From Schmidtea nova (Eukaryota), in the NCBI GenBank assembly GCA_044892505.1, contig CM097882.1, positions 367,846,001 to 367,910,000 on the forward strand: DNA of 64,000 nucleotides. The letters are read 5' to 3'. A program made the translations under genes and the position numbers. Numbering within the stretch: the stretch's first letter is position 1; the number at the start of each line of letters is the position of its first letter. The notes beneath the pieces are model-generated. The model was not told the origin of the DNA, ran no database searches, and saw only the letters and a list, made by a program, of their open reading frames with translations. Positions 8,656 through 15,375 of the stretch are shown here, one piece after another.

Positions 8656-9240
8656 TTTCTTTTTTAAATTCCGTTCACTTTCCCTTATTATTTAAATACA
8701 CTTTTCATAGCCAAAACATTTCTTTGAATTTCATTTAATTTATTCCAAAATTAAAATTTCTTAAATTACATCAAAAACGTTATAAAAACTTTCACAAATT
8801 TTTATAAATTCCTACAAATTTCTGAATTGCTTTTTCAATTAATGGCATTATGGAAATTATTGATATAAATGCTGGATTGTTGGTATGGATGTTTCAACTG
8901 AGATTTGATTTGATGTTATGATTAGGGCAATCTCACCAACATGAAATATTCACCCCGCTGATGCCCATGATGTGTCCCTAATTACTCATCACGTATGGTA
9001 ATGTATCTAGCGTTGTAGAATGTTGAGGCAGGTGAGCAACCTTGCGGCTACTATTTCCTCATTTATCTACGGGTCCACCACTGCTGATAGAAAGCCTGTG
9101 TGGTTTTGCTATGGTTCCCATTTACATTTCTCATTAAGTTCAGTGGTCTCTAGGGTTCCCTTTATCAACCTTTTCTCCTTTCATCATACATGGCTCATCA
9201 GATCACCAAACAAAACAATATTTCAGTGAAATACATTTAT

Positions 9241-9793
9241 TTAATTCAAGAGGACATCGGTATTGATGACGTCGATTAGCTGCTTCTCTGTTAATCCACT
9301 TAGAAAATCGACCTCGATTCCAAGTCTCTCAGCATATGCCCTCCTTTCAAGGCGTCGTTTCGCGCCTAGGCGATTTCTCCGTTTTGTGCGTGATGACCCT
9401 TCCGGTTTAAGGGAGGTATTTGGTACTTCTGCAACATGAGTTTTCCTCTGTCTGAGTTCCACTAGTTGTACACATTGACGTTAGCCAACGATTAAAGGTA
9501 CTGGCGCGTATTAAGGGCCGTAATTGTTGCTCAACGAATTCACTGGTGGGTGCTCGTAAATAATTATTCAGCTCCAGCTGGAATGCGGTGGCCTCTCTGG
9601 CTTGTTCTTCCAAGGCTCTCTCTGCTCTATATTGATGCTGTTGAATATCTTTGACTCGTTCTGAGTGGAACCAAGTTATTTTCTACGAGTTTATTTCGGA
9701 TTCCTGACGCTTCAAGTGGCTTTCTAACACCTTCACTTCTTTCTGCAACAGGCGATTTTCGATGGCATTGGGTTTACTCGTACTTTTATCCAT
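9241..9793 (-). pseudogene. Unknown coiled-coil protein family (here 'ORF-B'), copy 1
   Basis: ATG at 9793 reads MDKSTSKPNAIENRLLQKEVKVLESHLKRQESEINS*KITWFHSERVK...FQLELNNYLRAPTSEFVEQQLRPLIRASTFNRW with one in-frame TAG. A probable frameshift leads into the basic tail KRRNRLGAKRRLE (ORF 9241-9462). Confidence 0.7.
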
Positions 9794-10036
9794 CTTAAAT
9801 TATGGTGTTTGTTAGTTATTCGTCCTTGACAGTTACGGTCAACAACCCGTTCTCATATACCCTCGATTTAACCTCAATTACTTTTAATTAATCAGACCTC
9901 TTTGTTGTTTTACTCTAGACATTCAAACACTCATACAACATTATCCCTCATCATTTGAAACTCATAGAATCAAGAACTCATTTATTTATTTTTCGCTGAC
10001 ACCAGCATACTACACATGTTTTTCATATATAATCCA

Positions 10037-10654
10037 TCAGAACTCGATCCATTCCTGGTCACACTCTCGATCTGCTTTCCGGGTACCGTTTGCTTTGAAG
10101 TATTCCGAGCATGGTGTCCAACATAACTTGTCGTTATGGATAAAGATTTCCCATAACCGTGTTTTCGGTGTACATTGATCCTGACCCATGTTCAAGTTTC
10201 CTGGCAAGTTTGTATAAGGACGTAGTTCTCCGGTGCGAATACATCTGGGGCGTTCCAAAAGGATATAACTCATCTGTCGTACCACTTGTCTCGGGATAGC
10301 CATGAATATTAGTAACCATCGGGGTATGGCATTCCCGTCCTCAAATTGTATGAACCATTTCGGTGTGGCCGACACTCTATCTGAACTTGGTAGAGGCCAG
10401 AATGGGTCGCCCTCCCATCTTATTTGGAAATGATATATGGTAGTATCCGGCATGGTAGTAAGATTCAGGTAGCTTCTCCTCCATGCCCTCATATGACGTT
10501 TGACTGTCGCCTGGATTTGTCTCGGAACCTCTGATGTTGCTTTTTGTTCAGCTATAGTCAGCCTCTTTGATTGACAGTGATAGATTCGTGGTATTTTCCG
10601 TGGAATTTTCTGAGAAAATGAGATATTAGAAACACGATAATATTTGCACAGCCA
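10037..10654 (-). CDS. Unknown protein (here 'ORF-A prime'), 206-codon open frame
   Basis: The frame is open from 10654 to the stop at 10037; first ATG at 10492. It contains FQIRWEGDPFWP. No family recognised. Confidence 0.5.
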   Translation of the reverse strand, partial: WLCKYYRVSNISFSQKIPRKIPRIYHCQSKRLTIAEQKATSEVPRQIQATVKRHMRAWRRSYLNLTTMPDTTIYHFQIRWEGDPFWPLPSSDRVSATPKWFIQFEDGNAIPRWLLIFMAIPRQVVRQMSYILLERPRCIRTGELRPYTNLPGNLNMGQDQCTPKTRLWEIFIHNDKLCWTPCSEYFKANGTRKADRECDQEWIEF

Positions 10655-12008
10655 TCATTCTTCCAGCCGTTGACATCATTCCATAATCATCCGTACAATT
10701 TGACATTCATGCATACTCAGACACTTATCAATTCATATTTTACCTGTCTCAAAATTCACCAAACACATTCTCACTATTTAATTCATCCATTACATTTAAA
10801 TCATTCCCCGTGGTGGTGAAATCAGCCTACTAAAATTCAATGGACACTTTTATTTGGCCTACGCGTGACTCTACATTGTTGAATCGATGCTGGGTATCAT
10901 CATGCTAATTATGTAGTTTGTGATCGTTCTATTTTACTTTAACATTGGCTATTTATTCTCAACGTCTACCTCCTATCGCCCCATCATACTGGTGGGTCGG
11001 GGTCGTCAAAAAGGTAACTTTCCATTATGGGTTCATCGCTCTCCCTCACTACGATTCTTAGCAAGTCTTTACCCCGGCATGTGTATCTCATCACTCTGAT
11101 TCGGATATTCTACGACTTGCTTACTTTTATGCAATGGCATTTTAGGTCAGTTTTTCCCTGTCGATGGTTTTATCAGACATAATGTTAGTCGGCACTGTCC
11201 TTCTTGTGCACCCTTCCCGCAATGGTTATTTTAGATTACTCGCCGCATCAGCACTGAGAGGCCCAAAGTCCCGGCAGATCTGACGACCTTCGGGATACCT
11301 TAGTCATTTTGATAGAAATATGAGGGTTTAAATCAAAACAAAACTGAATTACCACATACCTTTTATTGCTGATAGGTTTCACAGATTCAATGATTTTCAA
11401 AATAGTGGTTTCAGATACAATGACTTGTACTGGTAACAATGACACTGGTAAAATATGTGTTGAAATGTTGTGGTAAAAATTTAAACTTGAATTAGCTTTC
11501 TGACTTTCGGATTTTCTCTTTCTGAATTGTACTTCCTTGCTCTATAGGGTCCAACACACACATAAAAGCTTTACTGTTCATACACCCGTGAATTACCCTA
11601 ATCATTCACGTTTGTAGTGTGTATAACAGCCGATCGCAAGTCAGCAGTTGAGCTTCTTTACAAGAACTACTCCTGACTTGTCGCATCGTTCGGGTTCTAG
11701 CTTGACCGATAGAAGGTCTTATTCTATTGCATCTCACCCTGCGCTGGTCTCTCTTTCGGGTGTTCGCTTCCTATTTCATATCTTACCCTTCAGCCTCCTT
11801 TATTGTTTCCTACTAGCTACCTTATTGCTTACCGTTTTATAAGTTCAACTCGACTTAAGCTTGCGATTTGCTATTATTCCCTTCAGCATTTACTCTAACT
11901 TGGACTTTATCCAATAAACAACACCACATTTCTATTTCTATACATATAATTATTCATATAACATTACAGTTGGAAATGTATTTAATTTTGGTGTTTTTAG
12001 TCTTTCAC

Positions 12009-13224: not shown

Positions 13225-13310
<86 letters not shown>
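13225..13310. repeat. (TA)n microsatellite
   Basis: Directly visible. Other TA runs occur at 5551-5622, ~41010-41064, 41743-41797, ~42020-42102, ~46335-46414, ~46646-46688 and ~60116-60163. Confidence 0.95.
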
Positions 13311-13311
<1 letters not shown>

Positions 13312-14315
13312 CACTTATATTTATTTAACACAGTTATACATAATGACCAACGGTATTTCATTTATTTAATTTTTCCACACTACCTCGATGGATTAATTTG
13401 TGGAGTTTATTATTGGTAACGCTCGCGATAAGCCGATTGTGGGTAAGGAACTTTACCGACATTCCCCTTAGTAAATAATTAATTGGTGGTGATTCGCTTC
13501 TCAGACAATAATCCCTCTCTATTAGCCTAGCAAATTTTAATTGTTAAATTTCCCTTCCGCTCATTATCGATATTTTTCCCACTCATGTACGACCAACAAT
13601 TAAATTTCTTATCTCTAATCACCGGAAACAATTTTCTAATGCCGGTTCTATCTCTCTCATATCCAGTCGATAGGGTGATTAAATTTAATCGGAGCGACGC
13701 ATTGGGGGTTTTGTAATTGGTTAAGTTGGTGACAGATTTCCTAACAATTCACTGGGTTGATGAGGTTTACGGAATCAAAAGCTCGTTTGGCTGATTTCCT
13801 CGTATTTTATTACAATCTAATTTGTAAACATTTTTGCTGTTCATTATCATTATTTCTGGGGATCGGATGCTACAGAAAATTAATCAGGGATTCAGAATGG
13901 GCTCCCCATTCTCTAACGTGGCATTAGTAATGGCATTCACATATCAGTGATAGCGGCTTAACGGATTACATAACTTCTCTCCTGATGCCAACGTATTTAC
14001 TGGGTTCCGGATACTACCATATTTACTGACATTCATACTTTTATTCAGCAAAAATCTCGGTGGGTTCTCGGTCGTCACTGTCATCATTGGAAATTCGTGA
14101 TTTTATCATTGCAATGCTCGTCATTGCGAAATCTTTGCATAATTTTCCCTAAAAATTGATGTTGAAGTCGGGATTCTCGGAACTCTACCACCGTTTCTAA
14201 CATTCATCTGTCATTTACTGCCTATATCATAAAAAGGTCTTTACGGAGCAACCTATCTTCGCCCCGTGTCGAGACACGAAACAAAGAGAGATCACCCCGG
14301 AGAGCTGACAATCAA

Positions 14316-14326
14316 CGGGATCGCCA
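14316..14326 (-). promoter_or_regulatory. Primer-binding-site-like sequence, tRNA-Arg(ACG)-like
   Basis: TGGCGATCCCG on the minus strand, close to the complement of the GGATCG-CCA end of invertebrate tRNA-Arg(ACG) as recalled. Confidence 0.55.
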
Positions 14327-15375
14327 AACTCTCACATTATCTATATTAAATCGAGATGACAACATAAGAACGAAATGTTTATGTGTGAAAGATTTTATTG
14401 AACTATAACACTTACAAATTTTTCCTGAAGATGTTCGTAATCACTGTAAGTATTGTCGTCCTCCGAGTGTTGTCAAACTGTTGAAATTCGTGTGAGTGAT
14501 AGAATTGTTTGTTGGATCGAGTGTGAAATGACAGAGTTTTTGAGTGGAAAATGACCTTTTCTGGTATAAATGACATTAATTCTGCTGTCCTGAGCGCTTT
14601 CTTATATAGTGAAATCAGCGCTCAGGCAGCCAATCAAAATTGAGTGCTTCTTTTATTGGTCCAATGACCCGATTCGTAATATTATTATATTATATATTAT
14701 TTTGTTATTATTTTGTTATTATTTTGTTATTTTCTTTTATTTCTTTTATTAATTGCATTTATTTTTCCTTATTTTTCTTAGCTTTTCTAATTTCTGCTCA
14801 ATTTCGTGATTTTCTCACTTTTGATCGATTCTAATTTTATTTGTTTGTTTTAATTGTATTCTTTTTCTTAATTGATTATTCTTTGCTTGTTTTATTATTA
14901 ACTTAATGTTTTTCTTTGATTATTGTCATTTCTTAATTAATTGTTCATGTCTGTCTTAACCCAACATATGACTCTACTGAATTTGGCTGTCGTATATATA
15001 TACCCATTTTTGTTGACAATCACATTTCAGCACGGTTGTCTTTTTGACAGTCATTTATTTTTAAATGTTTGTCTTTCTGTTATCAAACCGGTGAGTTTTC
15101 ATGATTACTGTTGCGTTAAAATTTTTTAATGATTTATTTTTTCTAGATCATCGGCTTATTTCAGGTGATCCACACCCTTGTTGTCATTTTTTGAGCGGTT
15201 TCTTGTTCCACTTAAGTAATTTTCATTGTTATTTATGTTTCATTGTTCAGATTTTACTGCATGCTGGGTTCTGGTGAGTTATTGGTATTTTATGTTATTT
15301 CATTTATTTTTATTGCTTATTTTTTATTTATTTCTTATTTATTTCTAGATTTCTTGGTGTTTGCCGGGCCCAACA
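14327..15375 (-). mobile_element. LTR-like segment (about 1.05 kb) upstream of the ORF-A/ORF-B array
   Basis: Starts TGTTGGGCCC at 15375. It has an A-rich U3-like part, CCAAT boxes, TATATAAG at 14608-14601, AATAAA near 14399-14394, then the PBS-like site. No second copy is present to confirm the boundaries. Confidence 0.5.

Follow-up and report, generated by a model that had tools for sequence, protein, structure and literature searches.

Nested TG…CA units with small open reading frames and a conserved structured RNA in Schmidtea nova: probable solo LTRs of giant Gypsy retrotransposons

The window analyzed here, 64 kb of Schmidtea nova contig CM097882.1, contains on its minus strand, between positions 15375 and 8846, a block of small open reading frames (ORFs), AT-rich tracts, and promoter-like signals. 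A sequence-only reading had taken this block for a single arm of LTR, primer-binding site (PBS), and leader cut at 8846; it is instead two complete nested insertions. The outer unit (15375-8870; 2,993 bp net of the inner unit) has TG…CA ends and the target-site duplication TTTA. Its 5′ part (14967-15375, 409 bp) comprises a TGTTGGG start, an AT-rich U3-like tract, and a TATA box at 15002, and its 3′ part (8870-11453) carries a donor-like GTATGT at 11359 and ends with CCAGCA at 8870. The inner unit (14966-11458, 3,509 bp; TGTTG…CAACA) is flanked by the duplication CATA at 14970-14967 and 11457-11454; its insertion point coincides with a putative initiator at 14970 of the outer unit.

The sharp 5′ boundary claimed at 15375 was confirmed: no more than 3 nt separate it from the point where a dispersed AT-rich repeat breaks off. 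The left half of this repeat, the insertion target, occupies 15376-15440 on the minus strand, and its last four nucleotides (15379-15376) are the left TTTA; the right TTTA (8869-8866) and the resumed right half of the repeat lie at 8846-8869, outside the element. When rejoined, the flanks of the outer unit align across the junction with five of the six remaining target-repeat copies (E values of 5e-21 to 3e-10). What had looked like truncation by a Gypsy LTR at 8846 is the CA end of the outer unit at 8870, its TTTA, and the resumed target, and the single 1,049-bp LTR proposed at 15375-14327 is the sum of 409 bp of outer and 640 bp of inner 5′ sequence, with two TATA boxes (15002 and 14608). 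The two units were inserted separately, and neither shares its TG…CA ends or its 4-bp duplication with the other; such independent boundaries were what the sequence-only reading had itself named as speaking against it.

The relative noted at 35.0 to 37.3 kb is a third complete unit (35020-37292, plus strand, 2,273 bp), with TGTTGGG…CAACA ends, the duplication CTAT, and a copy of ORF-B (ORF-B3, 36887-37249). All three complete units open with TGTTGGG. Among six units tested, three have a 4-bp duplication directly outside their TG…CA ends (TTTA, CATA, and CTAT) and the other three have none, against a background of 65 matching duplications in 6,612 start-end pairs (∼1% of pairs for a 4-nt match). 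A TATA box is found +340 to +400 after 16 of 189 TGTTG starts, and a window-wide scan needing both a duplication and this TATA position returned four pairs, three of which are the outer, inner, and 35-kb units. The units lie nested among Gypsy debris.

The terminal inverted match of the three complete units spans only 5 to 6 nt (four to five of the five terminal nucleotides match), and long terminal inverted repeats are absent, as 6 to 10 of the first 20 nt match, the background level. None of the three has direct repeats between its 5′ and 3′ ends, nor has 15375-14327, which argues against the LARD-like element with paired LTRs that had been considered; PBS or PPT was not found directly outside any of the six ends. 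A short inverted match with no direct repeat and no PBS or PPT outside the ends fits solo LTRs. gag and pol are absent from all three units. In agreement with the sequence-only reading, Pfam and motif searches of the block gave no signal for RT, protease, integrase, or CCHC; the motif scan returned only four D[TS]G strings and one GPY string, in short or stop-bounded frames. The earlier proposals of an LTR-type origin, of missing gag-pol, and of a family with a relative at 35.0 to 37.3 kb stand. Within the 64-kb window we found no parent element, no unit copy followed by PBS or gag-pol, and no paired LTRs around PBS-gag-pol-PPT.

The promoter-like region of the inner unit (14560-14660, minus strand) has the CCAAT/ATTGG boxes and TATA recognized before; the TATA box at 14608 occupies the loop formed by an inverted repeat (folding z of −3.7), and a splice-donor-like GTAAGT follows at 14410-14415. 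The TGGCGATCCC string at 14326 is also present, and it resembles what we take to be the 3′ end of tRNA-Arg, but its reading as a PBS was not confirmed: it follows GTT rather than an LTR-terminal CA, lies 640 nt inside the inner unit, and is contained (14326-14309) in two very stable hairpins (14230-14335, minus strand; z of −6.5, none of 200 shuffles as stable). At its LTR edge, a neighboring ordinary Gypsy element has CA and then TGGCGACC. TGGCGA occurs 11 times versus 9.9 expected, profiles of four PBS-like regions recovered none of the four left-out copies, and no tRNA was found in the window. The hairpin region is internal to the inner unit and is probably not a primer-binding site.

The small ORFs, all on the minus strand, are located inside the TG…CA units and hence within the very sequence that acts like an LTR. 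They are ORF-A (12784-13207, ∼140 codons in two frames with one frameshift, with a (TA)43 microsatellite upstream), the frameshifted ORF-B1 (12105-12420, directly after an acceptor-like AG), ORF-D (10987-11307, a decayed, GC-richer segment with several stops, whose composition suggests a coding origin), ORF-A′ (10037-10654, an open frame of 205 codons, with acceptor-like CTCAG at 10614-10610 and CTAAT upstream), and ORF-B2 (9407-9793, 128 codons with one in-frame stop, its ATG directly after an acceptor-like AG). No homologue of ORF-A or ORF-A′ was found. The former “spacer” holds the 3′ end of the inner unit, the predicted first exon of the outer unit, and the decayed ORF. The 205-codon frame (10654-10037) is longer than in all 500 block shuffles, and five frames of at least 90 codons were observed versus a mean of 1.15 in shuffles (1 of 500). 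The described pairing of ORFs with AT-rich tracts holds for most tracts: GC fractions are 0.43 to 0.51 in the small ORFs and mostly 0.31 to 0.37 in the intervening tracts, but 0.43 in the tract after ORF-B2. The copies are decayed, with frameshifts and stops.

The duplication of ORF-B and its recurrence at 36887 were borne out by pair scores that none of 100 shuffles equalled (z of 23 for B2-B3, 8.4 for B1-B3, and 6.9 for B1-B2). A fourth copy, ORF-B4, matches only B1; 16 of 100 shuffles equalled B3-B4 and 29 of 100 equalled B2-B4. Identities at codon positions 1, 2, and 3 were 0.42/0.63/0.35 (92 codons), 0.61/0.71/0.29 (28 codons), and 0.42/0.64/0.38 (45 codons), in alignments chosen by protein score, which favors positions 1 and 2. 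Judged by these comparisons, ORF-B is a real family of four copies that diverge most at third codon positions. The claim that ORF-A and ORF-A′ are paralogues fared worse: 34 of 100 shuffles scored as well (21 of 500 and 46 of 500 with X at the frameshift), making their relatedness borderline at best.

Each of the two nested units encloses, a short way in from its 3′ end, a structured RNA of ∼180 nt, with three further copies in the window. In the inner unit (11545-11804, minus strand), the motif core (11735-11555) is preceded by AATAAA at 11804-11799, at a distance of 347 nt from the unit's 3′ end; in the outer unit (8921-9241, minus strand), the core at 9114-8934 is preceded by AATAAATGTATT at 9241-9230, where the distance is 372 nt. 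On the plus strand, the 3′ part of a further member (20043-20961) contains the decayed ORF-B4, AATAAATGTATT, the motif (20717-20894), and a CCAACA end; no matching 5′ end was found. Another copy (39740-40020, plus strand) has no ORF-B directly upstream and ends with AAACA before an (ATT)n run, and a weak fifth (18315-18549, plus strand; E value of 0.004, roughly calibrated) ends with CCCAGCA; no duplication was found for either. The core lies 151 to 196 nt from the CA end in all five copies, and AATAAA is upstream of it in four, the 39.7-kb copy having one also 18 nt from its end. Two-sided changes affect 22 of 37 pairs (none of 500 shuffles), a covariation signal drawn from four sequences and a structure derived from the same alignment. 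Left-out tests recovered four of four copies (E values of 1e-9 to 4e-20), and no other DNA in the family is as well conserved as the motif. Rfam covariance models gave no match at gathering score over the window and none at E values up to 5 over 8800-15500; two further searches against known RNA and ribozyme families gave one chance-level match each (E values of 3 and 5.1). The 35-kb unit has neither the motif nor the AATAAA at −350; the motif may have been lost by internal deletion.

TATA boxes are at +373, +358, and +364 in the outer, inner, and 35-kb units, and donor-like sites are at +503 (without counting the inner unit), +551, and +475. An acceptor-like site precedes four of four ORF-B starts versus 28 of 2,096 ATGs in the window, by a rule fixed only after the ORF-B starts had been inspected; ORF-A and ORF-D do not satisfy it. 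Left-out profile searches detected no homology among the units' promoters and 5′ ends (0 of 11 recovered), and their pairwise similarity (z of 2.7 to 5.4) lies in AT-rich sequence. Transcription start, splicing, and poly(A) use in the units are predictions from these signals.

We think it probable that the block consists of solo LTRs of giant Gypsy retrotransposons, of Burro or Ogre size, with small and probably spliced genes inside their LTRs. Like Ty3/Gypsy (Metaviridae) solo LTRs, which arise by LTR-LTR recombination (PMC5408684), the units have TG…CA ends, a 5- to 6-nt inverted match, a 4-bp duplication, and no internal region; an inward promoter and a poly(A) signal are predicted from motifs at consistent positions. 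They differ in their length of 2.3 to 3.5 kb and in containing several small ORFs, sites resembling splice donors and acceptors, and an RNA structure shared across the family; the LTRs of the two ordinary Gypsy elements in the window measure only a few hundred base pairs or less. Burro/GYPSM1, a giant Gypsy element of planarians, has accessory ORFs, an internal region of up to 25 kb, and a total length of >30 kb (PMC6431247); by our arithmetic, each of its LTRs would measure at least about 2.5 kb, which the observed unit sizes fit. The setting, an AT-rich animal genome crowded with Gypsy nests, is alike. Burro/GYPSM1 also has a ∼5,000-amino-acid polyprotein with gag, env-like, PR, RT, RH, IN, BIR, and MATH domains. 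Pfam found neither the polyprotein nor Burro domains (BIR, MATH, BCL2, ankyrin, and env) in the block; a solo LTR is expected to lack the polyprotein, so its absence keeps the block from being classed as Burro itself and is compatible with a Burro-like origin. The sections of PMC6431247 used here do not place ORFs inside the LTR. Plant Ogre elements are alike in LTR size (1.9 to 6.5 kb) but differ in kingdom and in having their extra ORFs in the internal region (PMC6431247, same sections). GLT/GLT2 of Schmidtea mediterranea (names from Repbase annotation, per the part of PMC8532177 used) is a lead only, with a likeness seen by eye: the antisense strand of the GLT2 probe combines a donor-like site and an acceptor-like AG with an AT-rich tract and a small helical ORF, whose TWLRPE string resembles SWFSPE/TWFHSE of ORF-B. 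One GLT2 primer had no match in the window at up to three mismatches, and GLT structure was not described in the literature searched. Repbase may already contain the elements found here.

Under the solo-LTR reading, the block would be two solo LTRs (3.5 and 3.0 kb) of different, long-diverged giant Gypsy-type families, one inserted into the other. Each parent would have been integrated by an LTR integrase, leaving TG…CA ends and a 4-bp duplication, and would then have lost its internal gag-pol through recombination between its two LTRs. The observed layout suggests that each LTR is a transcription unit, in which a TATA promoter ∼360 nt in would start an RNA, a short first exon would be spliced from a donor near +500 to acceptors just ahead of each small ORF, and polyadenylation would occur at AATAAA ∼350 nt from the 3′ end. 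The product of ORF-B would be a short accessory protein, helical and coiled-coil-like, that selection has maintained across families. Because it is located downstream of the poly(A) signal, the structured RNA would fall in U5 and be copied into RNA only if transcription passes through the 5′ LTR to give genomic RNA; its place there would be directly ahead of the real PBS, with a possible role in primer loading, packaging, or dimerization. To our knowledge, an R region of 2 to 3 kb with spliced ORFs is very unusual, and it would need long strong-stop DNA.

In a second version of the solo-LTR reading, the multi-kilobase R region would be avoided: U3 would be enlarged to hold the ORFs, driven by a promoter upstream of them, genomic RNA would begin close to the 3′ end, and the motif would form R-region hairpins; MMTV sag is a parallel for an ORF in U3. 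That arrangement explains the ends and duplications equally well and suits a motif that is the best conserved DNA, but the only TATA at a conserved position is at ∼+360 and AATAAA is upstream, not downstream, of the motif in four of five copies, and we rate it improbable. Slightly less so, though still unlikely, is an LTR-less non-autonomous element of 2 to 3.5 kb with TG…CA ends, cargo genes, and a 3′ RNA structure, mobilized in trans by a Gypsy-like integrase or a Ginger-like transposase. Three complete copies and three fragments all lack an internal retroelement region, and Ginger1 and Ginger2 (2.6 to 7 kb), in the part of PMC2836005 drawn on, have TGTNR ends and 4-bp duplications, at AT-rich sites for Ginger2; the units here have TGTTG 5′ ends and three AT-rich 4-bp duplications, and one 3′ end is CCAGCA. 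Ginger inverted repeats are 40 to 270 bp (PMC2836005) versus 5 to 6 nt here, and the units have no integrase-like transposase. The covarying RNA at a fixed 3′ distance suggests an RNA stage. Without terminal redundancy, LTR-type reverse transcription could not regenerate the ends of such an element.

Two further explanations carry very little probability. A single element truncated at 8846, made up of LTR, PBS, and either an accessory-gene arm or cargo of the LARD kind, would account for the TGG-starting, Arg-like string after the promoter region and for the lack of pol, but not for two nested duplication pairs, a target that rejoins, two TATA boxes inside the supposed LTR, or a string that follows GTT in a hairpin, and it has no paired LTR. 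LARD and TRIM elements resemble these units in lacking pol and in having structured non-coding RNA, a LARD feature; here, by contrast, paired LTRs and a PBS or PPT at the LTR edge are missing and the ORFs appear to be under selection. As for the accessory arm of a giant retroelement, the block is not the 5′ arm of a truncated element, while the giant Gypsy link remains the best lead. A chance patchwork of unrelated decayed repeats, with coincidental duplications and ORFs, is as remote: the window is repeat-dense and AT-rich, 4-nt matches arise in about 1% of pairs, and several similarities seen by eye failed, but three duplications each accompany a TGTTGGG start and a TATA box at +358 to +373, the target rejoins, and the ORF-B and RNA motif statistics speak against coincidence.

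More tentatively, the solo LTRs could represent a giant invertebrate Gypsy group in which the LTR is a self-contained, alternatively spliced gene cassette of promoter, first exon, several small proteins including the coiled-coil ORF-B, poly(A) site, and conserved U5 RNA; a small share of this idea goes to a bolder variant, in which the unit would move without its parent as an LTR-less integrase-dependent element. We know of no description of such an architecture, with a multi-kilobase protein-coding R region, or of the U5 RNA. The locus is also an annotation trap, with two nested 5′ ends that mimic one LTR and an internal hairpin that mimics a PBS. As a probe, the ∼180-nt RNA is both new and cheap: a single covariance model is expected to span families whose DNA is otherwise unalignable, gather the whole group, and lead to the parents.

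LTRs are normally regulatory and non-coding. If multi-kilobase LTRs carry spliced genes, solo LTRs would be dispersed protein-coding units under tissue-specific promoters rather than inert scars. This would bear on reports of tissue-specific expression of planarian transposons on PIWI loss (PMC8532177) and of a giant element as the source of a protein useful to its host (summarized in PMC13465017). If true, each solo LTR would seed complete expressible mini-genes, and this 64-kb window alone holds five or six such remnants.

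The block at 8846-15375 (minus strand), which a sequence-only reading had described as an LTR followed by an arm of small ORFs and truncated by a Gypsy LTR at 8846, consists of two nested insertions. The outer unit (15375-8870) begins with TGTTGGG, ends with CCAGCA, and is flanked by a TTTA target duplication. A dispersed AT-rich repeat breaks off at 15376 and continues at 8869; when the outer unit was excised in silico, the flanks aligned across the junction to five of six other copies of this repeat. Because the flanks rejoin with the block removed, we conclude that 15375-8870 is a complete insertion, and the supposed truncation disappears. 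The inner unit (14966-11458) has TGTTGGG…CAACA ends and a CATA duplication. Thus, the single 1049-bp LTR proposed at 15375-14327 is in fact two 5′ ends in succession, outer and then inner. Nor is the tRNA-Arg-like string a convincing primer-binding site (PBS): it is found 640 nt into the inner unit, preceded by GTT and within hairpins (z −6.5). In contrast, a neighboring ordinary Gypsy element has CA immediately followed by TGGCGACC. A second PBS candidate picked by eye at 11295 was also rejected. At 14970-14967, 32 nt past the outer TATA, the inner unit interrupts an initiator-like sequence, and a similar sequence follows its own TATA; this is one instance of insertion at a start site.

A relative at 35020-37292 (plus strand) carries the duplication CTAT. 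Duplications are present for three of the six units tested; none was found at the partial members at 18.3, 20.7, and 39.7 kb. By chance, 65 of 6612 start-end pairs show a 4-nt match, and 16 of 189 TGTTG starts in the window are followed by TATA at +340-400. A window-wide scan in which both features were required returned four pairs, three of which are the outer, inner, and 35-kb units. Their TATA boxes lie at +373, +358, and +364 and splice-donor-like sites at +503, +551, and +475, respectively; AATAAA precedes the 3′ end by 372 nt in the outer unit and by 347 nt in the inner. TATA falls in the loop or center of a strong inverted repeat at 14660-14560 (minus strand; z −3.7) and 35345-35420 (plus strand; z −4.7). 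Divergence of the promoter and start regions prevents mutual profile detection, and the homologies seen by eye among promoter, PBS-leader, and start blocks were rejected, since a left-out profile search recovered 0 of 11 copies.

The small ORFs proposed earlier are real: a 205-codon frame was not matched in any of 500 block shuffles, and GC content is higher in the ORF segments than in most of the tracts that separate them. No gag or pol signal was found in 8846-15375, as had been claimed. ORF-B, present at 12105-12420 (B1) and 9407-9793 (B2) on the minus strand and at 36887-37249 (B3) and 20.0-20.4 kb (B4) on the plus strand, is a family; the four best of 78 region pairs are B-B (z 23.1, 12.7, 8.4, and 6.9; 0/100 shuffles as good for each). 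Two non-B pairs also gave 0/100, with z 3.4 and short low-complexity matches. The decayed B4 matches B1, not B2 or B3. In alignments selected by protein score, divergence peaks at third codon positions in four of five ORF-B blocks, the fifth being 7 codons long. Paralogy of ORF-A (12784-13207) and ORF-A′ (10037-10654) was not supported, with 34/100 shuffles as good and 21/500 and 46/500 in further tests. A T-rich AG with TAAY upstream precedes 4/4 ORF-B starts versus 28/2096 ATGs, under a rule set after viewing these starts and with B4 scored one base off its ATG; ORF-A and ORF-D (10987-11307) fail this rule.

Protein searches were largely blank. None of 11 candidates for ORF-B3 or 14 for ORF-A′ is a relative, and the sole match of an ORF-B profile among 1.84 billion representatives (E 7.5e-4) is an unrelated repeat protein; that profile was blurred by inclusion of an ORF near 34 kb later judged unrelated. 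Atlas was uninformative for ORF-B3 and blank for ORF-A′. Pfam, run with 30 proteins, gave only sub-threshold matches for the block's ORFs; PHROGs gave one weak match among seven, PDB one at E 0.5, and exact look-ups 0/7. A host phosphatase from the window, used as a control, had one 92% relative and then 45 to 62%. The lineage is therefore thinly covered, and blank searches say little about novelty. Single-sequence folding of ORF-B3 predicts three helices (pLDDT 58), with no viral matches to the fold, so ORF-B may be helical, at low confidence; the ORF-A′ fold (pLDDT 33) is unusable. Most likely, ORF-B is a putative oligomerizing accessory protein.

An RNA motif of ∼180 nt lies downstream of ORF-B1, B2, and B4 and also at 39.7 kb. 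A left-out search recovered each of these four copies (E 1e-9 to 4e-20), and a covariance model added a weak fifth at 18.3 kb (rough E, 0.004). In a MAFFT alignment, two-sided changes occur in 22/37 predicted pairs, above 500/500 shuffles, for four sequences and a structure taken from the same alignment. The motif core is 151-196 nt from the CA end in 5/5 copies. The sense strand is better supported (consensus fold, −17.2 versus −10.1 kcal/mol), and stops in matching frames of 4/5 copies reject antisense coding as the cause of conservation. Rfam has no match for the motif, and by-eye comparison with the ribozyme cores, together with Rfam, rejected hammerhead and HDV-like identities. In four copies, a second TGTTG(G) stands 55-100 nt ahead of the 3′ end (11556 and 8941, minus; 20891 and 39966, plus), where it might base-pair with the terminal CAACA/CAGCA.

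The window is AT-rich and contains an intron-split animal phosphatase gene, assembly gaps (runs of N at 21389-21584 and from 24927), and nests of ordinary Gypsy elements. Its base composition and its repeats suggest a planarian host. One decayed Gypsy (8845-4779, minus) retains a gag knuckle, protease, RT, RNase H, and integrase; its LTR remnants differ at 3/80 nt, the 5′ LTR missing its first bases and the 3′ LTR shortened. An older Gypsy pol is split in two (15780-15424 and 4768-4237, minus) by insertion of the whole 10.6-kb nest. Another decayed Gypsy (27033-30708, plus) has ∼100-bp LTR matches of 91% identity. The sequence split by the 35-kb unit contains a small ORF that combines a coiled coil with a degenerate zinc knuckle (33922-34467, plus) and was rejected from the ORF-B family (z no higher than 0.9). 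Downstream of it, a decayed frame (37300-38200, plus) looks env-like by eye, having a hydrophobic stretch and an RRTRR string; no pol was found near either. MITE-like palindromes, in some cases bordered by (AT)n, occur at 41742-42103, 46331-46693, 42873-43410, and 50698-52265, and the outer unit's target belongs to the 41.7/46.3-kb family. Other features include a DDE_1 transposase (23229-24266, minus), an exon of a LAR-type receptor tyrosine phosphatase (56312-57049, minus; related pieces at 40.7-47.9 kb), a 177-codon open frame without Pfam or PHROGs matches (2978-3511, minus), a weak ribosomal L6e match (304-732, plus), and a tRNA T-loop-like string, GGTTCGAATCC (33560-33575, plus), where ARAGORN and Rfam call no tRNA.

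We consider it fairly probable that the units are solo LTRs of giant Gypsy elements that enclose a spliced transcription unit. Recombination between two LTRs would leave TG…CA ends, a 4-bp duplication, and an inward promoter, with no internal region. Unit sizes of 2.3-3.5 kb fit the giant LTRs of Burro, calculated from published dimensions at about 2.5 kb or longer, and Ogre, at 1.9-6.5 kb (PMC6431247). Poly(A) addition would occur upstream of the RNA motif, which may function as part of U5 when genomic RNA is read through, beside the true PBS. Terminal direct repeats, and inverted repeats beyond 5-6 nt, are absent from every unit. An integrase-dependent element without LTRs seems an unlikely alternative, and solo LTRs with ORFs in U3 are slightly less probable still. 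Tiny terminal LTRs of 55-100 nt were rejected for lack of a 5′-3′ match, LARDs fail on paired LTRs, and Ginger, as characterized in PMC2836005, fails on inverted repeats.

A tentative lead is the GLT2 probe in the PMC8532177 supplement, in which a small ORF behind an acceptor-like site can be made out by eye, with a string that may resemble one in ORF-B; the GLT2 primer is absent from the window. ORF-bearing planarian LTRs are not described in the literature searched, a scope outside which lie the primary Burro papers (Grohme 2018, Lee 2026) and Repbase entries, and the elements may already be catalogued. The earlier observation is thus confirmed in part, and its interpretation, a giant retroelement's accessory-gene arm or a cargo-carrying LTR family, is supported in part, with a different anatomy. 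Most likely, these are giant solo LTRs that harbor small genes together with an RNA structure not yet described.
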